Source: a virus (Duplodnaviria > Caudoviricetes). Taken from it: DNA of 64,000 bases. A model generated the notes under the pieces. The model worked only from the letters and a program-made list of their open reading frames with translations, was not told the DNA's origin and ran no database searches. Location: positions 3,178-67,177 of the IMG/VR virus record IMGVR_UViG_3300048861_000043; one strand, given 5' to 3'. Below are positions 8,043 through 50,222 of this stretch, in pieces. Positions within the stretch are counted from its first letter, which is position 1. Every line of letters starts with the position of its first letter. The position numbers and the translations under genes are program-made.

Positions 8043-9923
8043 TTAACTCAACCCTGTGTTTGCCTGTGGCACCGTGAAGCTGTATTTCGCCATTTCCTTG
8101 CCGAAGTCTCGAGCGAGGGACTGTGCATCGGTCGCCTGTGTCTGGATGGTAATCGGGCCGTTGATGTTCGTCTCGGCAGTCGAGGTCATCTGGGACATAC
8201 GGGATGCGTATGAGCCGGAACTGCGAGCGCCAGCGGACTGCGCCGCTATTGCAGCCGCGTTGGTCGATCCACCGCCCGAGCCGCGCATAAACGACTTAAG
8301 CTTAGATCCATAAAGCGGATCGGTCGCATAGTGGCCGGTAAGCGCATCAGCGTAGGCCATCGGGTCGTTGAGATGCTTGCGCGCTTCCGCATAAGCCGAG
8401 CCGGTCGCCAAAAGCTTGCCATGCGCCTCAAACGCATCGTCCAAGGATGCGTATTTTGCGAATTTTGTGGGAACGCGTTTGCCACTTGCATCCCAATCCA
8501 TGCCCATAACGAAGTCCTGACCGGCGCGTGCATGAATCCCAAATGGATTGTTGCTTCCCTTCGGCATCTGCCTTCCGAACCCACTTTCAAGGCCAAACTG
8601 AGCAAGCGTGACGTCGATCGGAACACCATATTTCGCCTGTGTTCTGATTGCCGCTTGCACTGCCTCCGGACCCGCTTTCTGTCGAAGATCATTTGAGGTG
8701 CCCAGCGCGCCGGCTAGCGCATCGGCAGAATGGGACGCGACCGCCTTAACGAAGTCCATCGCCGGCATGTGAGCCGATGCTGCCAACCAGTCGCCATTCG
8801 CGATGTCCTTCTCGCCCTGGGTCTTATCCGTGTCTGGCAGACCCATTGCCTTCGCAATGCCGAGACCTGCGAGCGCCGCAATCGCGGCCGGCCCCAACGT
8901 ACCGATGATGCCCAATGAGGATCCGAGTCCACCAAGCGCGGCGGCAAGCGAGAGGATTGGACTCACCATCGACAGAATCTTGATTCCGGCAAGCGCGATG
9001 AGTACGTTCTTCCAGCCGCCAACCGAATCAGCAGCCTTATCCGCCCATTGAACAAATTGCTGGATGGATTGAACGGCATCGTCGACCCACTTGGCTATGT
9101 CGGCTTTGTGGTCAGCAACCCAATCGGCCATCTGCTGCAACTTCTTGAGCCACAACTCAAAAGTCGGCATCAACTCCAGAAGGATCGTCATTCCGACGTA
9201 CTGGAGGCGGTCCCTGAAGTCTAGCCATGCGTTCTGAAGTTTGAGAGCTTGCGCGGCCTGTTGTTCGGTGATGGCCGAGTTCTTCTTCTGCGCATCGACG
9301 AGCGCGAGGATGGCTTGCGGGCCTTGCTTGATGAAGTTGAACTCTTCACCGCTGACGCCCATCATCTGGGAGACGAGTTGCGCGCGAGCCGGATCGACCT
9401 TGTACAGGTCCTGGATGATCTTCGCGCGAGCCAGCAGGAAGCTATTGCCGTCCTGCAGGTCGCTAGTCTTTCCGCCGAAACGAAGGAAAGCCTGTATCTG
9501 GTCGCTGACCTTGCCGATCTTGAACCCGGCGATCTGCTGCTGAGAGTCCTGGAGTGCTTGCGTGATTCCTTCGGCGCTACCGCCTGCACGTTCGGCCGCC
9601 CGCTGCCACGCAGAAAGCTCCTGCGTGCTCATCTGCAGATTCTTGGCCATATAGCCAAGATTCACCGCCGAGCCGATCGTGTGCTCGGTGAAGTCCTTCA
9701 AACCCATTCCGGCAGTGAAGATCGCCAGGAGAGCCAGCACCTCATTGCGGACCTTCTTGAACGACTCGGCAGCCCGCTTGTTGGACGCCTCGATTTCCTT
9801 TGCGGCCTTGGCTTCTTCTGCCGTCAGTTTCTTCGTGGCGTCGGATGCCTTGTTCTTGCCGGTGATGAAGCCGGCAACGTCCATGCCGAGTGTCACGACC
9901 AGAGCGTCGACAATATTCGCCAT
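8043..9923 (-). CDS. Tape measure protein with C-terminal GH73 (FlgJ/glucosaminidase-like) domain
   Basis: Helical Ala-rich N-terminus; AQFGLESGFG...NNPFGI...FAKYASL...YATDP.Y catalytic-domain motifs. Confidence 0.9.
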   Translation of the reverse strand: MANIVDALVVTLGMDVAGFITGKNKASDATKKLTAEEAKAAKEIEASNKRAAESFKKVRNEVLALLAIFTAGMGLKDFTEHTIGSAVNLGYMAKNLQMSTQELSAWQRAAERAGGSAEGITQALQDSQQQIAGFKIGKVSDQIQAFLRFGGKTSDLQDGNSFLLARAKIIQDLYKVDPARAQLVSQMMGVSGEEFNFIKQGPQAILALVDAQKKNSAITEQQAAQALKLQNAWLDFRDRLQYVGMTILLELMPTFELWLKKLQQMADWVADHKADIAKWVDDAVQSIQQFVQWADKAADSVGGWKNVLIALAGIKILSMVSPILSLAAALGGLGSSLGIIGTLGPAAIAALAGLGIAKAMGLPDTDKTQGEKDIANGDWLAASAHMPAMDFVKAVASHSADALAGALGTSNDLRQKAGPEAVQAAIRTQAKYGVPIDVTLAQFGLESGFGRQMPKGSNNPFGIHARAGQDFVMGMDWDASGKRVPTKFAKYASLDDAFEAHGKLLATGSAYAEARKHLNDPMAYADALTGHYATDPLYGSKLKSFMRGSGGGSTNAAAIAAQSAGARSSGSYASRMSQMTSTAETNINGPITIQTQATDAQSLARDFGKEMAKYSFTVPQANTGLS

Positions 9924-39899: not shown

Positions 39900-40298
39900 T
39901 CATAGGCCCCTCTGTGTCGTGATTACTTCTTCCATCAGTGTCAACATCGCCATACGCGCCAACCACTGTGAAACGGCGCGATTCCCAACTTCCCTTTCGA
40001 ACTCTGAGATGTAGCGCGCCGGCAGATCCTGGCGCGGCTTGCCATGTCGGTCGACAGGCTCCCGGTTGAGCATGTTCGACATGTGCGAGCCCTTGATCTC
40101 GAGCTTCTCAGCGAGCGTTCTTTGCGTCATGCCGCGGAATGCCCGGTGTTCCCACGCGAGGCAAACGGCATCACGGAAAGATGCGCAAGCGGCAATTGCC
40201 TCCTTCGGAAGAAAGCGCGCGGACGAAGGAGTAAATCCGCGCGGATCGGTCTCTAAGGCTTGTGCAGCGGCCTTGTTCGGCGTTTGTTGCGTCTGCAT
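39900..40298 (-). CDS. cII-position HTH transcriptional regulator
   Basis: MTQRTLAE.L.I..SH.SNMLN HTH; directly downstream of cro. Confidence 0.7.
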   Translation of the reverse strand: MQTQQTPNKAAAQALETDPRGFTPSSARFLPKEAIAACASFRDAVCLAWEHRAFRGMTQRTLAEKLEIKGSHMSNMLNREPVDRHGKPRQDLPARYISEFEREVGNRAVSQWLARMAMLTLMEEVITTQRGL

Positions 40299-40412
40299 CG
40301 GTTAGTCCCTGATAGTTAAATACAAAGGCTTTACGACTGGAATTACGAGTTAAGGAAGGAGCCAAATGAAGGGGTCCTAAGACCCCTCACGAAACTAATG
40401 AAAACTAGTCGT

Positions 40413-40748
40413 CTATTTTTTTGTGTCATCCTTATCGACACTGCCGCCCAGCGGCTGAACATCATCGCTAGCCGCGCTGTCATGCATGACACCGTTACCT
40501 TGGAATTCGCTATCCGCGATAGACTGGGCAGAGCTGCGGATGTAGGCCCAATCAACATCGGGTCGCAAGTCCTCAACGCGAACCGCGCCCTTGGATGCCT
40601 TCTCAATTTCGATGGCCATCGACTCATTGCAACGGCGCTGTTTGTAGGCGATCTGCCAGAGATAAGCGGCGGAAGTGCCGACCTGAGCTGCCAGTTGCTC
40701 GCGCTCATCTTTGGTCAGGGCTTTGAAGTAGGTGCGAAAGGTATCCAT
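40413..40748 (-). CDS. cro: Cro/YdaS-like repressor with acidic C-terminal tail
   Basis: LA..VGTS..YL.QIAY..R...A..IE.AS.G.V....LRPD.DW; divergent from cI. Confidence 0.85.
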   Translation of the reverse strand: MDTFRTYFKALTKDEREQLAAQVGTSAAYLWQIAYKQRRCNESMAIEIEKASKGAVRVEDLRPDVDWAYIRSSAQSIADSEFQGNGVMHDSAASDDVQPLGGSVDKDDTKK

Positions 40749-40753
40749 GGCTC

Positions 40754-40851
40754 TAACGATAGCATTTGCTCTCGCATAGCGCAAGCACTTGCTCGCAAAA
40801 CAATAACTTTTGCGATCACAGCAAATGCTAGTTTTCAGTTTTAATACCGTT
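40754..40851. promoter_or_regulatory. oR region: three AGCA-NN-TGCT operators, pR and pRM
   Basis: Operators at 40761, 40784, 40820; TCGCAAAA-N7-TTTTGCGA palindrome 40793-40815; pR TTGCGC-17-TATCGT on minus strand. Confidence 0.75.
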
Positions 40852-41655
40852 ATGGATATCGACGCACACCGCCGAGCGCGGCTTCAGGAACTGGTCGACA
40901 AGGAGGCAGATGGCATCGTCGCGGAATTCGCGCGGCGGCATCCGAACGGTCCGGACGCGACCAGGTTACGGCAAATGCTGAACGCCAACTACCGCGGAGG
41001 AAACGGCTTTAAAGAGGGTGCCGCACGCAAGTTGGAAAAGGCCCTGGGCCTGCCGCGGCTATATTTCGATTTCGGCATCGAGAGCGCGCTTGCGGCCAAC
41101 CACATTTCAGCGCCTGCTGATATATCGAAGAAGAGTCACATTTCGGGCATCATTGAGGATTCATCTGGCGGTTTGAGGCCTACGCTAGGCGAACAAGGTC
41201 TTCCCAATCCAACCCCGGATGAGTACGTGCTAGTTCCCCAATTAAATATTGAGGCCGCCTGTGGCGAGGGCAGGTTTCATGACCACGTAATCGTGGATGG
41301 CGGCAAGACGTTCGCCAAGAGCGAGCTTCGAGACTTGGGTGTGCCAGAATATGCAGCTCGGTTGATATACGCGGCCGGTGGCAGCATGTCTCCTAAGATC
41401 CAGGATGGCCGAGCTGTGCTTATAAACCTTATGGATCGGGAGCCCCGCGACAATAAGATTTATGCCATCTGCATGCCGGATGATGGCCTCGTACTAAAAC
41501 GGCTTATTTGGGATTTTCACCCAGCAGTAGGCCAACAGACATGGATTATCCGAAGCGACAACCCGGATAAGGCAGCGTTCCCGGACAAGCTCCTGCCACC
41601 TGACGACCGTACGATGATCGCCGGCCGCGCCGTTTGGACTGATAGCTTGCTTTAG
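40852..41655 (+). CDS. cI: CI-like repressor with S24 autopeptidase domain
   Basis: N-terminal HTH; EAACG cleavage region; GGSM (Ser) and LKRL (Lys) catalytic motifs. Confidence 0.92.
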   Translation: MDIDAHRRARLQELVDKEADGIVAEFARRHPNGPDATRLRQMLNANYRGGNGFKEGAARKLEKALGLPRLYFDFGIESALAANHISAPADISKKSHISGIIEDSSGGLRPTLGEQGLPNPTPDEYVLVPQLNIEAACGEGRFHDHVIVDGGKTFAKSELRDLGVPEYAARLIYAAGGSMSPKIQDGRAVLINLMDREPRDNKIYAICMPDDGLVLKRLIWDFHPAVGQQTWIIRSDNPDKAAFPDKLLPPDDRTMIAGRAVWTDSLL

Positions 41656-41674
41656 AAAACCAAAAAGTACACAA

Positions 41675-41971
41675 ATGGATCAACCACAGGACAAAGTCCA
41701 CTCACCGAAGAAAGCCGCTTTGTCTATTTATAACGCCGTCCTGGCCTTCGTCGTGCACGCCATCGGTGGTGCCGTCGTCTTCATGGTGTTGGCGGGCCTG
41801 GCGTTTGGCCTGGGACAGTTTGTGCATCACCTTGGAGTCTGGGGAGCGGATCCCATATTGGTTACTTGTCTAGGAGCGCTAGAGTACGTAATCTTCGGTG
41901 CTGACGCTTTGTGCATGCTATTCTTCATCTACAGCGCAGTGCGAGCTGCCTACGCGGAGATAAAGCAATGA
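41675..41971 (+). CDS. cI-cotranscribed membrane protein (2 TM)
   Basis: Two long hydrophobic segments; 19 nt after cI. Confidence 0.75.
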   Translation: MDQPQDKVHSPKKAALSIYNAVLAFVVHAIGGAVVFMVLAGLAFGLGQFVHHLGVWGADPILVTCLGALEYVIFGADALCMLFFIYSAVRAAYAEIKQ

Positions 41972-42159
41972 AAGATTCCCTTAAGGTGATTGTTGAGGCG
42001 GCGAAGGAAACGCCCAGGCTGTATTTTGCTCCGATCATTGGAGCCCTACACGCAGTCTCGAAAGTGCAAGATCAGATGATCCGCACACAGCGCGATAGCG
42101 GATCCGGTGAATTTGGGCGGTTCGTCGTCAAAGATCGTAATCCGCACAAAGAAAAATAA
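41968..42159 (+). CDS. cI-cotranscribed small protein
   Basis: ATGA coupling; MKDSLKVIVEAAKETPRLYFAP... Confidence 0.7.
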   Translation: MKDSLKVIVEAAKETPRLYFAPIIGALHAVSKVQDQMIRTQRDSGSGEFGRFVVKDRNPHKEK

Positions 42160-42166
42160 CACGTCC

Positions 42167-42259
42167 ACGGCGGAAGCCGTCTTGAGTCTGTCGCACTTCG
42201 GTGCGACAGCGGCCCCAGCCGGGGCGTCGAACTGAGCCCAGCCCCGCGCTGGGCTTTTT
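42167..42259 (+). terminator. Three stable hairpins plus intrinsic terminator ending cI operon
   Basis: ACGGC-GGAA-GCCGT; CTGTCGCAC-TTCG-GTGCGACAG; GCCCC-AGCC-GGGGC; AGCCCAGC/GCTGGGCT plus TTTT. Confidence 0.75.
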
Positions 42260-42335
42260 CATATCCCCCCCCTGCTGCTCGCGCGGCATCCTCCCTCACC
42301 GAAAGCAACGATAAAAAAATTTATCGATAAACGAT

Positions 42336-42373
42336 AGCTTTTGCTTGCGTTGCGCGAAAGCGTTTGCTATTGT
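42336..42373 (+). promoter_or_regulatory. oL/pL: two operators and early promoter
   Basis: AGCTTTTGCT 42336 and AGCGTTTGCT 42359 (23-bp spacing as at oR); TTGCGT-17-TATTGT with extended -10 TG. Confidence 0.7.
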
Positions 42374-42431
42374 TCTTCTCAGACGCAGCACAACACCACA
42401 CGCAGCACCAAACGCTAAACCGGAGAGAGTG

Positions 42432-42653
42432 ATGAGCAAGATCAAGGGCTACACGGACAAAGAGATCACAGACCGCGTTCAGGTGATGGATTTCCTTGAA
42501 GCCAATCAAGACGAACTGCAATCGCTCATGAAGCTCAGGGGTATGACTGAGGAACAGCCCGGTTACACGGCTTTCGTAATGAACTTCGTGCGCAACAAAC
42601 TGCGCGACGAGGATCTCCGAAACGAATTCGTGACTCAGCATTGCTTGGCATAA
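42432..42653 (+). CDS. First early-left gene, hypothetical
   Basis: GGAG RBS; MSKIKGYTDKEITDRV... Confidence 0.7.
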   Translation: MSKIKGYTDKEITDRVQVMDFLEANQDELQSLMKLRGMTEEQPGYTAFVMNFVRNKLRDEDLRNEFVTQHCLA

Positions 42654-42699
42654 CAGGTCGAAACCGCCGCAGATCACCGCGGCAACAAGGGGAAGGGAA

Positions 42700-42876
42700 A
42701 TGCGCGAATGGCTTGTGATGATTTACGCGGGTGAATATCACACGAACCCAACGTGGGTGCTTTCGGTAAGCGCTGATAGCAAGGCGATGGCGATATCGAC
42801 GGCAATGTGGCTTTTCAAGGGTTCAGCAGAGTACACGGATTCGATCAATCGGATCGAGGCTGAGGAAGCTATTTAA
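42700..42876 (+). CDS. Small hypothetical protein (58 aa)
   Basis: Own translation MREWLVMIYAGEYH...; AAGGGG RBS. Confidence 0.6.
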   Translation: MREWLVMIYAGEYHTNPTWVLSVSADSKAMAISTAMWLFKGSAEYTDSINRIEAEEAI

Positions 42877-43610
42877 CTGTTCCCACCGCTAAGCCTACGG
42901 GCTTACCAGTGCGAATAGCACCGCAGTAGAAGCAAAACGCGCAATGGCGCACCGATCCGGTGACAGCGGAACGAGTTCTTTAAGATGACCGGAAGGGATA
43001 CCCGTAAGGGAGCGCCCAACGTCCTACCGCTGAAAAGATCGGGACCTATCAAACCGTGGTGGTTCGGCTAGTGATCCACGGTGTGATTGAGCAGTACCCG
43101 CCAGACCGGCCAATAGATGCACGGTCGGTCTGGATGCAGGTTTTCGTGAATGGCGTTGTGCGGCGCGGAGAATCGTAGACGCGCAGGGACATCCTAACCG
43201 ACATTGCGAGCGGAGTAGCCGGAGTTACACGACCGGCCATAGCGCCATTCACGAAGCACTGCAGTTTTGATGGAATCGGAATGCGCAGGCTGATGCGCAG
43301 TTATTCGGGTAACGAACGGGCGATTCAATGCGGCTGGCTGTAAGACAAGGCTCGTAAATAGAAGGTAAGCCAGCATCGCCCGATAAATTCGGTGGACATC
43401 CATATTCCCTCGCATGAGGTGGAGCCTATACCGAACATAGTTCAAGTCGGAGATCAGCACCGGCCCGATTCCCTGAAAGCTGCAACACCAAGCACGCTGA
43501 ATTGTGCCGGTTGGGCCTCCGCACAGAGGTCCCTTACTTATGTGCATGGGATAGACCAACACAGCCGGTACTTCTGAGCGGGGCTTATACGAGTGAATTG
43601 TCAAGTTAGT
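42877..43610 (+). ncRNA. ~730-nt structured non-coding RNA cluster including C4/CI-like antisense RNA units
   Basis: No credible plus-strand ORF; long stems 43143-60/43238-55, 43272-79/43465-72, 43317-24/43375-82; UACG/GUAA/UUCG loops; loop-loop complementarities. Confidence 0.65.
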
Positions 43611-43630
43611 AGTGCTTATCGGAGAAGACT

Positions 43631-43801
43631 ATGGGTGATATGGGTGATTCAGAACCGACCTATGCCGACTACACGGCAAGCGAGATCCGAGAATTTCTGG
43701 ATGCGTGCGACGACATGGGCGAGGGGCTAGATAGTCTGCTGGGAGACGGCGAAATAGCCGTCAACATCATCCGCGATCTTTTGGCCGCGCTGGCCGGCTA
43801 A
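43631..43801 (+). CDS. Small acidic protein (56 aa)
   Basis: GGAG RBS; MGDMGDSEPTYADY... Confidence 0.55.
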   Translation: MGDMGDSEPTYADYTASEIREFLDACDDMGEGLDSLLGDGEIAVNIIRDLLAALAG

Positions 43802-43825
43802 TCTCGCCCCCCCCTAGGAGCCCAC

Positions 43826-43978
43826 CATGCCCGCCCAACGCGCAGTGCACAGAATCATGCAAATAGCAGTAGAGAGATTGCAGCACCTCGGTCTCGTGTA
43901 CAGAGTCGATCGCGTGACGCGCACGGGCAGGGTGCTGGATTCGGAGTTCGTTCTTTTGGACCAAATCACTTGGTGCTG
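43826..43978 (+). CDS. Small hypothetical protein (50 aa)
   Basis: AGGAG RBS; MPAQRAVHRIMQ... Confidence 0.5.
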
Positions 43979-43981
43979 ACT

Positions 43982-44320
43982 ATGGACAAGATAGAAAACG
44001 GCGTCTCGGAAACAAGGCCATTCACCGCAGTGTTTCTGGGCCTCACCGCCGAAGAAGCTAGCGAAATCGTGAATCATCCGAAGTGGTCGGCGGGCTCATG
44101 GAGTCATGCGCTTGATGACCGTGACGCAGCCCGCGCTACCCGCGACGAACTGCGCGCCAGCCGGCCGAAAGCGCTGACGGACGATCAGATTGAAGACGTA
44201 GCGCGCCGTCACGGCACTGGTGGCTGGCAGTCGCTAAATGACATGAAGCGGTTCGCGCGCGCCATCATCGCCGCTACGGAGGCCAAATGCACATCAACAT
44301 CAATCTTGTCTGGGACGTGA
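43982..44320 (+). CDS. Modular hypothetical protein
   Basis: HPKWSAGSWSHA module plus LTD.QI...FARAI module typical of phage early genes. Confidence 0.65.
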   Translation: MDKIENGVSETRPFTAVFLGLTAEEASEIVNHPKWSAGSWSHALDDRDAARATRDELRASRPKALTDDQIEDVARRHGTGGWQSLNDMKRFARAIIAATEAKCTSTSILSGT

Positions 44321-44403
44321 TCATCACCTGGTCCGTCCTTGTAATCGCAGCGCTCGCGTTCAACTACGGCGCGCATCGCAATAAATTGAGGGAGGAAGCA
44401 TGA
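44287..44403 (+). CDS. Single-pass membrane peptide (38 aa)
   Basis: GGAGG RBS; MHININLVWDVIITWSVLVIAALAFNYGAH... Confidence 0.55.
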   Translation: MHININLVWDVIITWSVLVIAALAFNYGAHRNKLREEA

Positions 44404-44522
44404 AGAAGCAACGCGGATTCACGGTCGTCGAGGTTATGGCCGTTTTGGTCGTGCTGACCGTTCTAACTGGCGCCGGCGTGGCGATCTTCACTGCCGTGCA
44501 CTTCATTGGCAAGTTCTGGTGA
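44400..44522 (+). CDS. Minimal type IV prepilin-like peptide (40 aa)
   Basis: GAGGGAGG RBS; MKKQRG/FTVVEVMAVLVVLTVLTGAGVAIFTAVHFIGKFW, a class III signal with G|F and E at +5. Confidence 0.75.
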   Translation: MKKQRGFTVVEVMAVLVVLTVLTGAGVAIFTAVHFIGKFW

Positions 44523-44529
44523 GGTCGAT

Positions 44530-44661
44530 ATGAGCGAAGCATCAGAGAAGTGGCTGGCAGAGTCCTTCGCATGGCTGGATGAGCAGCAGCGGAAGCAGGA
44601 TGCTTTAGACGCCGAGGCTTACGAGCGCTTTCGCCAGAAGGTGTTTGGGCCGCTGGATTGA
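44530..44661 (+). CDS. Small hypothetical protein (43 aa)
   Basis: GAGG RBS; MSEASEKWLAESFAWLDE... Confidence 0.55.
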   Translation: MSEASEKWLAESFAWLDEQQRKQDALDAEAYERFRQKVFGPLD

Positions 44662-44987
44662 TTACTAAGCGACGGCCGCTCTTAGATTCTATAAGCCGCA
44701 GCGGTGAGATGCCGCAACGAACTCAACGCGACACCTGCCGGGCCTGTAGTGGGCGCAAGGAGTGGTGCGACAGCCGGAGAGACGGCTATTAAGTGGACAG
44801 CGCGGATCCCTGAAAGCGCCTTTCCGGGTGGGATGCCCGGAGCCCTGAGTGGTGACGACTTAGCGCCGATTACGCAAGCCGATGCTTCTGCGACACGCGG
44901 GGGCGAACCTGGCCGGGATCGGGACTGCGCGGGGGAGTCGTCACCACTGAGGGCAATCAACCTTCAACCGAATTCAGGAGTCCTACC
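44662..44987 (+). ncRNA. Second structured non-coding region
   Basis: 18/19-bp stem 44842-60/44936-54 enclosing GCA-AGCCGA-TGC hairpin and ATCGG; additional hairpins upstream. Confidence 0.55.
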
Positions 44988-45200
44988 GTGGGCACACATT
45001 TCAACGCCGAGGTCTATCGGCAGATTGCGCCGCAAGATCAAGAAGACGACGAACCCGAATACTCCCCCGAAGAAGATTGGGAAATGGGCTTCAGCGACTG
45101 GAAGCACAACAAGGATGACGATCTGGCGACGGTGGTTAGGCGGTACGCGCGACCGGTCGGTCATGTCGATCTGTGGGACGAACCGAGGAGGGCGGCATGA
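44988..45200 (+). CDS. Acidic hypothetical protein
   Basis: GTG start with AGGAG RBS. Confidence 0.6.
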   Translation: MGTHFNAEVYRQIAPQDQEDDEPEYSPEEDWEMGFSDWKHNKDDDLATVVRRYARPVGHVDLWDEPRRAA

Positions 45201-45442
45201 ACGGATTGCCGAAAGGGCCATGGTCGTCAAGTCTGGATGGACACGGCGCATTTAGTATCGAATCAGCGACTGGCAACCAGATCTGCTTTGTACGCAATGC
45301 CGAGGCTGCCTGCTTGATCGCTGCCGCGCCGGAATTGCTCGCTGCATTGAAAACGGCTGTGGAGGTCATTGGCCATCCCGACGACAGTTTCAGCGTGTAC
45401 ATCGCTAAGTTGATCGCCAAAGCCACCGGGAGCCAATCATGA
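45197..45442 (+). CDS. Hypothetical protein
   Basis: GPW...A.LIAAAPELL.AL...IAKA.G module; ATGA coupling. Confidence 0.75.
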   Translation: MNGLPKGPWSSSLDGHGAFSIESATGNQICFVRNAEAACLIAAAPELLAALKTAVEVIGHPDDSFSVYIAKLIAKATGSQS

Positions 45443-45630
45443 GCGTAACCATTGAATACCACGAAGGCGCGGTGACGTACATATCGGACGCCGGCCGCCA
45501 GAAGAACGAATCCGAGCAACGCGACATCACCGTCGATCAGCAGCGCGCAGAGATCACCATGTTTGCTGCGGCCGGAACGGTCGTGAGTATCGCGGCGCTG
45601 GTTATTACACATTTGTTGGGGAAGTCATGA
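45439..45630 (+). CDS. Small protein with C-terminal TM helix
   Basis: Coupled; hydrophobic C-terminus. Confidence 0.6.
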   Translation: MSVTIEYHEGAVTYISDAGRQKNESEQRDITVDQQRAEITMFAAAGTVVSIAALVITHLLGKS

Positions 45631-45824
45631 GCTTTTCTCGAGATATTCAGCACACGCGATATCGCACGGCCAGAACGCTGGTCGAAGACTTTGGGCCGAA
45701 CGCCAAACTTCACGTCGAGCGCAAGAGCGAGGCTCGCAGCTGGCTCTACGCGATCGGCTCCGGTATCGCAGTGGGCGCTATTTGGTGGCTCATCGTGGCG
45801 CTGCGGGTTGGGGGTGGGGCATGA
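45627..45824 (+). CDS. Small protein with C-terminal TM helix
   Basis: R.L.E.FGP.AKL.V motif plus TM; coupled. Confidence 0.65.
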   Translation: MSFSRDIQHTRYRTARTLVEDFGPNAKLHVERKSEARSWLYAIGSGIAVGAIWWLIVALRVGGGA

Positions 45825-46114
45825 GCGATTTCAAAGCCCCTTGGTCGTGGGACGACAAGGTATGGGAAGAATGCGACCCGATGCAACGCGCGCCGTGGTT
45901 AGTCGATGCTACTGGCAATCCCGTCTTGAAGGGCGAGATCCGTTGCGTGAGCGAGGAACTTGCCCACTTGATTGAGGCTGCGCCGGAGCTATTGGAATGC
46001 CTTCAGGCTACTTTCGACATGATCGGCGAGCGGCTGCTTGATGACGTGTTCGGCTATGAATGGCTTGCAAAGGCGAAGGCGGCGCTGGCAAAGGCGAGGG
46101 AAGAGACAACATGA
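45821..46114 (+). CDS. Hypothetical protein
   Basis: APW...LI.AAPELLE.L...AKAAL.KA module. Confidence 0.7.
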   Translation: MSDFKAPWSWDDKVWEECDPMQRAPWLVDATGNPVLKGEIRCVSEELAHLIEAAPELLECLQATFDMIGERLLDDVFGYEWLAKAKAALAKAREETT

Positions 46115-46302
46115 CCCACTACGACAACGCCATCCACGTAATGGAGAAGCAGGGCGGCTCCTTCGTCCAATCACTCGCCCATTGCTACCTGATGGCCGAT
46201 CCAACCAACAAAGCAAAGCTGCGGGAGGCGTTCGCCGGGTACTTTGATGTCTACGAGGCGCGGTTCGATCAATGGAAACAACAATATAAGGAGGCCGCGT
46301 GA
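46111..46302 (+). CDS. Hypothetical protein
   Basis: M...GGSFV..LA.C...AD..N...L..AF. Confidence 0.75.
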   Translation: MTHYDNAIHVMEKQGGSFVQSLAHCYLMADPTNKAKLREAFAGYFDVYEARFDQWKQQYKEAA

Positions 46303-47486
46303 CAGCGTCCACAGAACTAACGGTTGCCGAGCAGCCGCAACAACTAATCACCATCGAGCCGACGAAGTACGTCGAGTTGGTGTTTGAGCCGTTCGCCAAG
46401 CGCCTAGCTGATGCCAAAGAACTGGCGCGGACGACCACGTATGACGTGAAAACGACTGCGGGCATGGCGACAGCCGTCAAGATCCGCGCGACGTTCCGCG
46501 ACATTCGAGTTGCTAGCGAGAAGGCTCGCAAAGAACGCAAGGCACCTATTCTGGAGATCGGCAAATTGCTTGATAGCCGCCAGAAGGAAATCGAGGCAGA
46601 GATCGAGCCGTTTGAGTCGGAGCCCGACGCGGCGATCAAGGCTGAGGAAAAGCGGAAGGACGACGAGAAGATAGCCAAGGCAGTCGCCGAGTCCGCGCGC
46701 ATCACGAAAATCCGCACGATGGTCGACGAACTCAAGGCGGTTCCTGCGGAATCTGTCGGGCGATCGTCTGCTGATCTGGCGGCGACCATCGAAATCCTCG
46801 AAATGCATGAGGTCACGCTGGCGGAGTTCTTTGAATTCTCTGGCGAGGCTGAGGTTGCAAAGCATGGCTCGCTCGCCAAGCTGCGCGAAATGCTGACCGC
46901 GCAACAGGCCATTGAGGCGGAGCAGGTTCGCCTCGCATCAGAGCGTGAAGCGATTGAACGCCAGCGCGCCGAACTGGCTGAGCAGGAGCGCTTGGCTGCG
47001 GTAGCTCGAGAGGAGCAGGAAGCCAAGGATCGCGCTGAACGTGAGCGCGTTGAGGCTGAGCAGCGGGAAGCGCAAGAGAAGGCCGCCGAAGCAATGCGGG
47101 TGGAGTTGGAGCAGCACGAAGCCAGGATGTGCGCTGAGCGCGCTGAGATTCAGCGGCAGCAGGACGAACTCAACCGCGCTCGTGAGGCTGCGGAGGCCGA
47201 AGCCCGAGCCAAGCGCGAGGCAGAGGAAGCCGCAGCGCGTGTCGAGGCCCAGCGCATTGCAGACGAACGAGCGGAAGAGGCGAGGCGCATCCAAGCTGAG
47301 AAGGACGCCGATGAGGCTGAACGGATTCGGCGAGAGCGCGCCGACTTTCTGAATGTCGGTCCCGGCGATCAGGAAATCATCGCGCTAGTCGCCAAAAGTT
47401 ATGGCGTCCCGTACCAAACCGCATGCAATTGGATTGCGAAGATCGAGTTTGTCGACTTCACGGACGATGAGGAGAAAGCAGCGTGA
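46299..47486 (+). CDS. Long coiled-coil protein upstream of recT (Gam/DUF1351-like N-terminus)
   Basis: EK.RK..KAP.L..GK.LD...KEI; EARQ-rich coiled coil. Confidence 0.75.
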   Translation: MTASTELTVAEQPQQLITIEPTKYVELVFEPFAKRLADAKELARTTTYDVKTTAGMATAVKIRATFRDIRVASEKARKERKAPILEIGKLLDSRQKEIEAEIEPFESEPDAAIKAEEKRKDDEKIAKAVAESARITKIRTMVDELKAVPAESVGRSSADLAATIEILEMHEVTLAEFFEFSGEAEVAKHGSLAKLREMLTAQQAIEAEQVRLASEREAIERQRAELAEQERLAAVAREEQEAKDRAERERVEAEQREAQEKAAEAMRVELEQHEARMCAERAEIQRQQDELNRAREAAEAEARAKREAEEAAARVEAQRIADERAEEARRIQAEKDADEAERIRRERADFLNVGPGDQEIIALVAKSYGVPYQTACNWIAKIEFVDFTDDEEKAA

Positions 47487-48502
47487 GTAACGCAGTCGCA
47501 TTAATCACAGACGAGATTTATGGTGTCCGCGCCAGCTTCGAGGCCGTTAGCGTCGATCGGTCGATTAACTTTGAGCGAGAGGCTGGCTTCGCTATCCAGA
47601 TGATCACGGCGAGCGACTATGCGCTTGGCGTGGCGATGGGTAATAAGCAATCGGTCATTGATGCCGTCACGAACGTGGCCGCTATCGGAATCAGCCTGAA
47701 CCCCGCTAAAAAGCAGGCTTACCTGGTGCCGCGCAAGAACAAGATTTGCCTTGATCTTTCGTACATGGGGTTGATCGATCTGGCGATTCAGGAGGGCGGC
47801 ATCAAGTGGGCGCAGGCGCAGCTGGTCTACGAGAAAGACACGTTCGCACTGAACGGCATGGACAAGATGCCGCTGCACCAGTTCAACCCGTTCGGAAAAG
47901 ACCGCGGCGAAATCGTTGGCGTTTATGTGGTAGTCAAGACGGCTGATGGCGAATACTTGACGCACACGATGACGATTGCTGATGCCTACGCTATACGTGA
48001 CCGGTCAGATTCCTGGAAGAAGCAGCAGCCTGGCAAGCGCGGGCCATGGGAGAGCGATCCGGGCGAGATGATCAAGAAGACATGCGTCAAGCAGGCGTCG
48101 AAGTACTGGCCGAAGACTGATCGCTTGGACAAGGCCATTCACTACCTGAACACGGACGGCGGAGAAGGATTGGCGGAGCCGAGACCGCAAGCGCCAGCAG
48201 GTTGCGCGGCTGACGTGCTGACTGCGTGGTGCAACAAGGCCAAAGAGGCAGCAAGCGAGGCAGTGCTCCAGACAGTGTGGGAAGGCGGGCTGGCGATCAT
48301 CAACGCGAGTGGCGACCGAGCGGCCTACAACACCTTCAAATCGACCGTGAAAAACCGCAAGGACGAACTGACGAAGGTTCCTAGCGATGGAAAGACCATC
48401 GATATGACGCCAGCTACGCCGCAGCGTGAGCCGGGTTCCGACGATGCTGAGTTGCAAGCCGATTTTCAACGGCAGATGGCTAAAGAGGGGGCAACGCAAT
48501 GA
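47483..48502 (+). CDS. recT: RecT-family recombinase
   Basis: [15 protein letters not shown]...L..SY.GL..LA...W.....EM..KT..K.A.KYWP. Confidence 0.92.
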
Positions 48503-49146
48503 TTCCGTACATTTTGTCAGAGCACGCGCAAGGTTCAAATGAATGGAAAGCGGATCGAGCGGGCCGGGCGACCGGCTCCAAGGCTTCGGCGATCCAAGCC
48601 AAAGGGAAAGGCAATGCCGAAGCAGCCACGCGCGCCGACTATCGCGTGCAACTTTCGCTCGAGCGCCTGCTTGGTGAACCATGCGACGATGATTTTACGT
48701 CGCGTGACATTCAGAACGGCATCGAGCGCGAACCATTCGCCCGCATGGCATACGAGACGCGAACCGGTTTGTTCGTGCAGGAAGCCGGGTTTGCCTACTG
48801 GGAAAAGTTGATGGTCGGCTGTAGCGTTGATGGATTCGCGGAGCAGGGTGGCCGGAAGGGTTTCGTTGAGATCAAGTGCCCCAAGAGCAAGACGCATTTG
48901 GAGTATTTGACCGGCAAGCGCTTGCCGCCGACCTATCGGCCCCAGGTGCTTCACAACTTCCTTGTGACCGGCGCCGAGTTCGCAGACTTCATTTCGTTCG
49001 ATCCGAAGATGCCCGAGAAGCTTCAACTGTTTGTCTTCCGCGTCGAGCGCGACGAGGACGAGATCCGAGCATACGAAGCGGAACTTCGCCAGTTCCTGAT
49101 GGAAGTCGAGGCGACGCACAAGCAACTGGCGCTAATGGCCGCCTAA
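48499..49146 (+). CDS. YqaJ/lambda-exonuclease family nuclease
   Basis: QG..EW...R.G..T.S...G.E.EP.AR..YE...G.S.DG...EIKCP...Q. Confidence 0.92.
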   Translation: MIPYILSEHAQGSNEWKADRAGRATGSKASAIQAKGKGNAEAATRADYRVQLSLERLLGEPCDDDFTSRDIQNGIEREPFARMAYETRTGLFVQEAGFAYWEKLMVGCSVDGFAEQGGRKGFVEIKCPKSKTHLEYLTGKRLPPTYRPQVLHNFLVTGAEFADFISFDPKMPEKLQLFVFRVERDEDEIRAYEAELRQFLMEVEATHKQLALMAA

Positions 49147-49164
49147 CCCTCACACGCCCACCCA

Positions 49165-49242
49165 GCATCAGATGAAGCCGAAAGGCGCTGATCTCCGAGT
49201 AAGTCTGGTTGGACGTGCCCCAGCATCAATCGCTGGCGCATC
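49165..49242 (+). promoter_or_regulatory. Candidate antisense-RNA target sites (a/b-type)
   Basis: GCTGATCTCCGA 49187-98 is the reverse complement of 43447-58; GCATCAG 49165-71 and GCGCATC 49236-42 are complementary to 43290-98. Confidence 0.65.
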
Positions 49243-49275
49243 CATCCAAGATGCCCGCGAAGGTTGCGTGTGCTT

Positions 49276-49299
49276 CCCCGGCTTCGGCCGGGGCTTTTT
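49276..49299 (+). terminator. Intrinsic terminator/attenuator before RNA ligase
   Basis: CCCCGGC-TTCG-GCCGGGG-CTTTTT, 14 nt before ATG 49314. Confidence 0.8.
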
Positions 49300-49313
49300 C
49301 CGAGAGAACAAAT

Positions 49314-49898
49314 ATGGATTTCGTTGAATTTCCGAAGATGGCTCGTCTGTCCCGCGAAGTTATCGTGACAGAAAAAATCGATGGCACTAATGCTGCGATC
49401 GTTATCGAGGCTGCAACACCCGGTTCAAAAGCCATCGCGACAGTCGGCGGTTTCGATCTTTTTGCCCAGTCGCGCACGCGCTTTATCACGCAAGAAGCCG
49501 ACAACTTCGGTTTTGCGCTATGGGCAGGCAATAACGCCGAAGAACTGCTGAAGCTCGGCGTTGGCCGTCATTTCGGCGAGTGGTTCGGTTCGGGCATTCA
49601 ACGCACCTACGAGCTGAAGGAAAAGCGCTTCGCGCTATTCAACGTTTCGCGCTGGGATGATCCGGCAGCGCGTCCCGCCTGCTGTCATGTCGTGCCGACG
49701 CTCTGGCGCGGGAATTTCTCGGACCTGAATGCGGATCTGGTGCTGGGCGAGCTTGCATTGTTTGGCAGCCAAGCGGTCCCCAACTTCATGAAGCCCGAAG
49801 GAATCATCGTCTATCACGTCGCTGCCGGGATCGGCTTCAAAAAGACCATCGAAAAAGACGAAATTCCGAAGTCGGTAGCTGAACGTCAGGCCGCCTAA
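49314..49898 (+). CDS. ATP-dependent RNA ligase family (Rnl2-like nucleotidyltransferase)
   Basis: TEKIDGTNA (KxDG), SR.R, GEWFG, FALFN, PEGI..Y, FKK. Confidence 0.85.
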   Translation: MDFVEFPKMARLSREVIVTEKIDGTNAAIVIEAATPGSKAIATVGGFDLFAQSRTRFITQEADNFGFALWAGNNAEELLKLGVGRHFGEWFGSGIQRTYELKEKRFALFNVSRWDDPAARPACCHVVPTLWRGNFSDLNADLVLGELALFGSQAVPNFMKPEGIIVYHVAAGIGFKKTIEKDEIPKSVAERQAA

Positions 49899-49958
49899 TA
49901 CCGCCCCATACGCCGCGCAGTGGCTGCGCGAAGAGATCCCATCATTAGCGAGACGAAC

Positions 49959-50222
49959 ATGCGAATCAATGTCTATAGCCAAGAATTAACTGACGAAGTT
50001 CTGTTGATCGAAAAGGAATCGAATACCGGCCTTGTGTATAGCGCCGTCCAGATCGTACTGCATAGCAGCGACAAACTGCATCACCCTCCGCATGACGACG
50101 ACCGCAGCGCAGTGACGTTCTGGCTGCCGAAGTCGAAGCATCGCCGCGAAGCTCTCGCGCTTGCGTTCGAGAACATGGCAAAGCTTGTGCGCAACGCACG
50201 CGACGAAACGGGGCTGGACTAA
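49959..50222 (+). CDS. Hypothetical protein
   Basis: MRINVYSQELT...DDDRSAVTFWLP. Confidence 0.7.
   Translation: MRINVYSQELTDEVLLIEKESNTGLVYSAVQIVLHSSDKLHHPPHDDDRSAVTFWLPKSKHRREALALAFENMAKLVRNARDETGLD

Follow-up and report, generated by a model that had tools for sequence, protein, structure and literature searches.

The DNA analysed here (the window) is a stretch of 64,000 nucleotides that makes up most of an IMG/VR virus record (IMGVR_UViG_3300048861_000043) with direct terminal repeats, which is rated complete and belongs to a soil Burkholderia-type phage. On the plus strand of the window, at positions 44400-44522, there is a gene of 40 codons followed by TGA, which we call the mini-prepilin gene. 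Its assignment is based on the list of open reading frames (ORFs), the models PF07963 and TIGR02532, homologues of the same length and the ratio of non-synonymous to synonymous substitution rates (dN/dS). A Shine-Dalgarno sequence, GGAGG, was read from the sequence at 44391-44395 (plus strand), 4 nt 5′ of the ATG, and this ATG overlaps the TGA of an upstream 38-codon ORF (44287-44403) in the arrangement ATGA. An earlier note, made by a model from the letters of this DNA, had called here a 40-codon ORF below the cut-off of the ORF track, with a strong ribosome-binding site and ATGA coupling, and it was right on these points. Only 5 in-frame sense codons precede the ATG, so there is no longer form of the ORF. 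The product starts with MKKQRG/FTVVE, where the slash marks the predicted prepilin-peptidase site. The predicted leader MKKQRG (44400-44417, plus strand) is basic, has 6 residues and ends in Gly-1. The predicted mature peptide (44418-44519, plus strand) has 34 residues, with Phe1, Thr2, Glu5, a helix-forming hydrophobic tract that runs to about mature residue 27, and the ending HFIGKFW. This ending bears the signature that column statistics define for the whole family, H28-F29-x-x-K32-F33-W34, at the extreme C-terminus (44499-44519, plus strand). The mean Kyte-Doolittle hydropathy of the peptide is 1.85.

The N_methyl model of Pfam (PF07963) matched the peptide with 33.6 bits (E 2.6e-8; gathering threshold 21.2), and it is the only match to this model in the whole 67,177-bp phage record. 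The scan with TIGR02532, which the earlier note had proposed as a check, gave 24.5 bits with a cut-off of 16.3. Both models thus bear out the hallmarks of a prepilin-peptidase substrate that had been read from the letters, namely the basic leader, the Gly/Phe junction, Glu at +5 and the hydrophobic helix. It has been described that a class III signal peptide is formed by a hydrophilic leader ending in Gly and about 21 hydrophobic residues broken by Glu5 (Berry and Pelicic, PMC4471445), and the mini-prepilin has this same leader, about 21 mainly hydrophobic residues and Glu5. The pilin fold, in which an alpha1 helix of about 50 residues lies on a beta-sheet head, is not present, since there are 34 mature residues and nothing after Trp34. 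In the model obtained with AlphaFold2 from an 82-sequence alignment the peptide was a single continuous helix from residue 9 to residue 39, with a mean predicted local distance difference test (pLDDT) value of 92.5 and without a head domain, in agreement with the 34-residue headless product that the earlier note described. The structure prediction of the peptide together with PilD of P. aeruginosa (LEP4_PSEAE) had a score of 0.01, and the look-up in the ESM Atlas returned generic N_methyl clusters only, all below 0.9. There is strong support for a genuine class III (prepilin) signal peptide, without a globular head, in the 44400-44522 product.

Homologues of 40 residues were retrieved with peptide and small-alignment searches from a contig of Paraburkholderia caledonica (65% identity), two IMG/VR contigs (58% and 48%), several metagenome contigs, P. 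antibiotica, Paraburkholderia sp. BR10872 and Burkholderia gladioli. The four close homologues all have a length of 40 residues. Between the window and the P. caledonica copy (locus L001 in our numbering), codons 1-16 showed 7 synonymous and 0 non-synonymous changes; the dN/dS of these codons was 0-0.18 in 5 of 6 pairs, and that of the whole gene was 0.13-0.54 among the pairs where it could be computed. The first 16 residues are kept in the close Burkholderia and Paraburkholderia phage or prophage homologues despite many synonymous changes. The identical length of the homologues and the purifying selection at the codon level exclude a chance ORF, and the 44400-44522 ORF is a real gene under purifying selection. 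An antisense ORF of 70 codons (44360-44572, minus strand) was considered and rejected, as its counterparts in L003 and L004 agree with it in nothing beyond the mirrored MKKQRGFT. Three loci have antisense ORFs, of 67-73 codons, which have in common only the mirror of the conserved N-terminus, from which it follows that the sense frame is the selected one. The conservation in related prophages that the earlier note proposed to look for with tblastn was found in part by another route: peptide and profile searches do find phage and prophage homologues, while a tblastn search of 50,697 phage records with the peptide gave no match, the low-complexity filter and the short query being the probable reason. 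A scan of the genome collection with two peptide patterns returned only ordinary full-length pilins that start with MKKQRGFT.

A profile built from four sequences was scored against 1.84 billion cluster representatives, and 400 proteins were obtained at E<=0.001. The best 150 of these 400 matches were nearly all of 36-45 residues and aligned from the first to the last position of the profile. The family counts given below refer to 157 sequences, 153 of them with a recognisable cleavage site, and the column statistics to 82 members of forty residues (alignment A6). Gly-1 was present in 151 of the 153 members, an aromatic residue (Phe, Tyr or Trp) at +1 also in 151, Thr+2 in 150, and Glu+5 in 150 with Asp in the other 3. 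The conservation of the G/FxxxE motif in homologues, on which the earlier note made its proposal depend, accordingly held, as G/F-T-x-x-E is kept in about 150 of 153 divergent members. The sequence H-F-x-x-K-x-W followed by the stop was found in 154 of the 157 sequences, and in nearly all members the residue before the Trp is Phe or Tyr. Among the forty-residue members, Gly-1, Thr2, Phe29, Lys32 and Trp34 are invariant (82/82), Glu5 is present in 80 and His28 in 81, and 77 have Tyr, Trp or Phe at mature position 24; the central part of the helix varies in sequence, with many Ala, Gly, Val and Leu residues. Going beyond the earlier note, the peptide belongs to a phage-wide family in which the C-terminal H-F-x-x-K-F-W is as conserved as the signal part.

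For 146 of the 153 members a mature peptide of exactly 34 residues is predicted, with leaders that mostly have 4 to 10 residues. A fixed distance from the Gly to the C-terminus and a variable one from the Met to the Gly is the pattern expected from cleavage at G/F, and it gives indirect but strong support to a putative processing by prepilin peptidase at this point. PF07963 matched 68 of the 82 members. When the N-terminal part was compared with profiles of particular subunits, matches to PpdD-type pilins were seen in 40 of the 82 members vs 2 for GspG, the major pseudopilin of type II secretion, and a match to Flp_Fap was seen in 1, a weak one (E 0.0076). No model of Pfam, NCBIfam or PHROG spans the full peptide, and the literature search for strings of the C-terminal motif gave no paper containing it. 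These peptides of about 40 residues, G/FTxxE...HFxxKFW, are apparently a large phage-borne family that has been undescribed so far.

All the contexts of mini-prepilin genes that we examined were phage DNA. In six lambdoid phage or prophage loci the gene is placed between the gene of an S24-domain repressor and RecT/YqaJ genes (RecT and YqaJ in both L076 and L080, YqaJ only in L071 and L072, RecT only in L075), and the repressor arrangement of the window recurs in L071, L075, L076, L079 and L080. In a prophage of B. gladioli, on a 3.7-Mb contig, the peptide gene is located 3′ of the gene of an S24-domain repressor, and P22_Cro, NinB, NinG and terminase are also present; in the fetched stretch of this prophage there were no Pfam matches to RecT or YqaJ. 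In three further contigs small genes are arrayed as in phages, together with DnaB-type helicases or a RecA-like gene. A strict DNA pattern (G-[FY]-T-x-x-E, 22 codons, H-F-x-x-K-[FY]-W-stop) was found in 23 contigs of IMG/VR, which have lengths of 5 to 353 kb and a GC content of 0.27-0.62. Considering this range of GC content, the carriers probably infect very different hosts. The four-base overlap of start and stop with the preceding gene is common in the family, and the preceding gene differs by clade. A blastn search of the larger family contigs L108, L094 and L104 against the 50,697 phage records found no related isolate.

In the window phage, the minus strand carries the structural genes (terminase, portal, prohead protease, major head protein, tail sheath, baseplate wedge and tail fibre), and this set indicates a contractile-tailed phage. 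On the plus strand the order is CI-like repressor, small ORFs that include the mini-prepilin, RecT-like protein, RecE/YqaJ-like exonuclease and RNA ligase. The CI-like repressor with an S24 peptidase domain (40810-41655, plus strand; phrog_4, E 9e-25, and phrog_6201) is about 2.7 kb upstream of the mini-prepilin gene, at the start of the early region. The RecT-like annealing protein (47483-48502) and the RecE/YqaJ-like exonuclease occupy 47483-49146 (plus strand; phrog_148, E 5e-64, and phrog_149/434) at the downstream end of the operon. The same position in lambda-type phages is the site of small host-interference genes. There is no promoter-like site near the mini-prepilin gene and a terminator-like hairpin is located upstream, at 43513-43532, so we infer that its expression belongs to the early lytic transcript and not to the prophage state. 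Taking into account that the gene lies in a repressor-controlled early operon without a promoter-like site of its own, an effect during lytic growth seems more likely than one in the lysogen. A lysis role of the holin or signal-arrest-release type was also considered and is unlikely, given that the gene is in the early region and does not adjoin lysis genes.

The upstream ORF of 38 codons (44287-44403, plus strand), which is coupled to the mini-prepilin gene through the ATGA, encodes a single-pass membrane peptide with a helix followed by basic residues and, after the helix, F-x-R-G-A in 5 close loci (alignment A4). It is also found in L093, L099 and L110, and elsewhere it is missing or other genes are in its place. 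This peptide and the mini-prepilin are predicted to have opposite topologies, and it is possible that the two are partners. Downstream, at 44530-44661 (plus strand), there is an acidic ORF of 43 codons that ends in ...RFRxKVFGPLD, is present in 5 of 7 loci (alignment A5) and had no match in Pfam, NCBIfam or PHROG. Both the upstream peptide and this downstream ORF are restricted to the Burkholderia-type clade, and the mini-prepilin is therefore without a universal partner gene.

By comparison with type IV prepilins and pseudopilins, the mini-prepilin shares the short basic leader ending in Gly, Phe1-Thr2-x-x-Glu5, the hydrophobic helix, and the predicted topology and cleavage site. It differs from them in that it stops at 34 mature residues, without the C-terminal part of alpha1 and the beta-sheet head, Pro22 or the disulphide region, and in having a private C-terminal H-F-x-x-K-F-W and a location in phage early operons instead of loci of pilus genes. 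Flp/Tad pilins and the PilA-N of Geobacter also have very small mature subunits that are mostly alpha1 helix. These proteins, of about 45-60 residues, build filaments and have their genes together with those of their machines, and the Flp pilins have a G/xxxxEY motif and are processed by the peptidase TadV/CpaA. The motif of the mini-prepilin is G/FTVVE, of the G/FTxxE type and not G/xxxxEY, and it is phage-borne.

Phage-encoded pilin look-alikes are of an already known kind, and what is new here is a headless variant of about 40 residues with its own C-terminal motif. The phage protein P-FimU replaces the minor pilin of the host and blocks the adsorption of competing phages (Sztanko et al., Cell Rep 2026, PMC12952977). 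P-FimU and P-PilA are, like the mini-prepilin, phage genes that supply a look-alike of a type IV pilus subunit. Unlike it, they are full-length, have the fold of host pilins, are incorporated with pilus function kept and are expressed from the prophage, whereas the mini-prepilin is headless and is encoded in a repressed early operon. The same work describes truncated PilA-like proteins of about 60 residues in six virulent Pseudomonas phages, for which incorporation or a block of assembly is the speculation of its authors (PMC12952977). These are also phage-encoded N-termini of pilins without a head, but the mini-prepilin differs from them in having 20 residues fewer, a C-terminal motif of its own and an occurrence in temperate and other phages over many host GC classes. 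Some short PHROGs, which may or may not correspond to the published PilA stubs (phrog_10597, 13280 and 11263, with profiles of 59-72 positions), cover no more than residues 1-23 to 1-32 of the peptide and match 3-20 of the 82 members each. As a separate observation, a different short prepilin-like protein is encoded at L005:1215-1427, on an 81-kb IMG/VR contig; it also begins with MKKQRG/FT, and its mature part of about 63 residues contains cysteines and has an acidic tail. Together with the three PHROGs above, it indicates that several unrelated short phage prepilin families exist.

Small phage proteins that remove the pilus receptor are also described and result in superinfection exclusion (PMC12826054; PMC8764522); among them, Tip and Aqs1 inhibit PilB (PMC12826054). 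These proteins act on the ATPase or the platform, to which they bind on the side of the cytoplasm or of the membrane. The PHROG scans gave no sequence relation between the mini-prepilin and this group, and to our knowledge none of these proteins has a pilin-like signal. A closer precedent for a headless pilin helix is CIP, a synthetic peptide of 17 residues from the N-terminus of Caulobacter PilA, which cut the susceptibility to PhiCbK by 77% (PMC7196804). CIP is active alone in the membrane and lowers both pilus function and susceptibility to pilus phages. Unlike the mini-prepilin, it derives from a type IVc (Flp-type) pilin of the host, of which it is a fragment, was defined experimentally, acts through PleC and is not a natural gene product.

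The earlier note had proposed that the product poisons or caps the assembly of the type IV pilus or of type II secretion, or titrates the peptidase, with superinfection exclusion as a result, and in general terms this is plausible. The more specific reading that we put first, tentatively and as somewhat short of probable, is that a core-only pilin would enter the assembly pathway of the type IV pilus and stall it. The peptide would be inserted in the inner membrane so that its leader stays cytoplasmic, the prepilin peptidase of the host (PilD/GspO type) would cut after Gly-1 and probably N-methylate Phe1, and the mature helix of 3.6 kDa would then engage pilins or the assembly platform through the contacts of the filament core (Phe1, Glu5 and the aromatic residue 24). 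The aromatic position 24 of the family recalls Tyr24 of the type IVa major pilins. A headless subunit could not support further growth, and the assembly of the type IV pilus would be stalled or destabilised; that of pseudopili or competence pili might be hit too. Type IVa pili seem a more likely target than type II secretion. The likely benefit for the phage would be a fast loss of the surface receptor or of DNA uptake, with competitors excluded and fewer progeny lost on infected cells. The class III motif is sufficient alone for membrane insertion and Gly-1 is critical for cleavage, and Glu5 is unnecessary for cleavage and needed for methylation and for the assembly of homopolymers (PMC4471445). 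Considering that Glu5 and Thr2 are near-invariant in the family and that Glu5 is unneeded for cleavage, the conservation points to pilin-type contacts with pilins or with the assembly site and not to a mere anchor or decoy, and suggests that the mature helix still makes them.

Several results weigh against the stalling of pilus assembly. Pro22 and Gly14, which are typical of type IVa pilins, are unconserved in the 82-member alignment. The invariant C-terminal H-F-x-x-K-F-W has no counterpart in known pilins and may bind something unrelated to the pilus. The profile search in genomes of 401 Burkholderiales species, with 18 candidates per genome scored, gave no match at E<=1e-9. The search of sequencing runs found the stretch in soil metagenomes only, and no RNA run was listed.

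Among the alternatives, the one that survives best, though we regard it as unlikely, is that the signal peptide is borrowed for insertion and trimming and that H-F-x-x-K-F-W acts on a target of the inner membrane or the periplasm that is unrelated to pili. The peptide could then block the entry of the DNA of superinfecting phages, inhibit division or perturb the membrane, like other small early phage proteins. This would suit the fact that the strongest family-specific conservation is in the C-terminal motif, which is not a pilin feature, and the place of the gene among small early genes from the repressor to the recombination genes, which is typical of diverse host-interference genes. It would also suit the absence of linked pilus genes, as no genes of a filament machinery (ATPase, platform, peptidase) were found in the 67-kb phage genome region or in any fetched locus. 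We know, however, of no other class of signal-anchored phage effector that uses a class III signal, and a buried Glu5 and Thr2 would be costly for a plain anchor, yet they are nearly invariant. The retention of Glu5, which cleavage does not need (PMC4471445), calls for a reason of the pilin type.

Clearly less likely is that the processed helix mimics the pool of pilins and binds the transmembrane part of a pilin-sensing histidine kinase of the PilS or PleC type, which would read the pool as full, so that the transcription of pilin is turned off or the surface behaviour is changed without the machine being jammed. The mini-prepilin keeps exactly the pilin segment involved in this kind of sensing: the 17-residue pilin helix signals through PleC and lowers the susceptibility to pilus phages, and the same paper cites the intramembrane sensing of PilA by PilS (PMC7196804). 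Such kinases are not universal, however, while the family keeps a single invariant C-terminal motif over the whole GC range given above, as if its target were universally conserved, and a transcriptional shut-off would be slow for a gene of the lytic cycle.

We consider improbable that the peptide is a competitive substrate or inhibitor of PilD/GspO by which all the type IV filament systems would be starved of mature subunits. The leader with Gly-1 is perfect for this function, but a decoy needs neither Glu5, nor the fixed length of 34 residues, nor the C-terminal motif, and the fact that this motif is as conserved as the signal part argues against a mere decoy of the peptidase. In addition, a substrate that is cleaved undergoes turnover and would inhibit poorly if it were not made in great excess. 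Very improbable, finally, is that the free aromatic C-terminus is a ligand that activates or blocks a periplasmic protease of the DegS/AlgW type or a tail-specific one and alters the envelope stress response, because in the known protease-activating tails the third-last residue is aromatic and Phe is the last, from which the K-F-W tail differs, and only about 6-10 residues would reach past the membrane, even if the motif is always at the extreme C-terminus, as PDZ ligands require, and mucoidy is induced through AlgW/AlgU by a truncated PilA whose last residues are F-T-F (PMC3684759).

If the stalling of pilus assembly is extended to the whole family, the G/FTxxE...HFxxKFW peptides would be widespread chain-terminating pilins, that is, universal inhibitors of type IV filament machines (pili, competence pili and perhaps type II secretion) that are activated by the host peptidase. 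Their invariant C-terminal stub would bind firmly to some conserved part of the assembly site and give the same fast shut-off of the receptor across very different hosts. We regard this extension as doubtful. Type IV pili are major phage receptors and organelles of virulence and DNA uptake, and the exit of the pilin from the membrane into the filament is a step that is still poorly understood. A natural core-only pilin of 34 residues, retained in many phages that are not related to each other, would offer a compact tool to probe this step from pilin to filament by genetics and chemistry, and it would also serve as a template for peptide inhibitors of piliation. If true, it would represent a new mechanism of exclusion of phage by phage, in which the inhibitor is activated by the peptidase of the host itself. 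The mini-prepilin also shows that ORFs under the usual cut-offs of gene calling can hide large conserved families.

Other features of the window were noted. The non-coding region 43000-43640, 5′ of the cluster of small genes, has blocks that are near-identical to L003:4780-5420 (for example at about 43135-43270 and 43480-43605), unlike the neighbouring proteins of the L003 phage, which are only 50-60% identical to those of the window. This suggests a structured RNA or a regulatory region; the Rfam scan of 40000-50000 gave no match. In the 116-codon ORF at 43970-44320, the segment of about 44021-44136 is 84% identical in DNA to gp46 of Burkholderia phage Bcep176, and no other similarity to deposited phages was seen in this region. 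Two small paralogous ORFs of the early operon, 45173-45442 and 45782-46114, are within 1 kb and both match phrog_1273. On the minus strand, the tail protein encoded at 8043-9923 combines the N-terminal part of a tape-measure or lytic tail protein with an endolysin-like domain (residues 422-586), and it is probably a tail component that degrades the cell wall.
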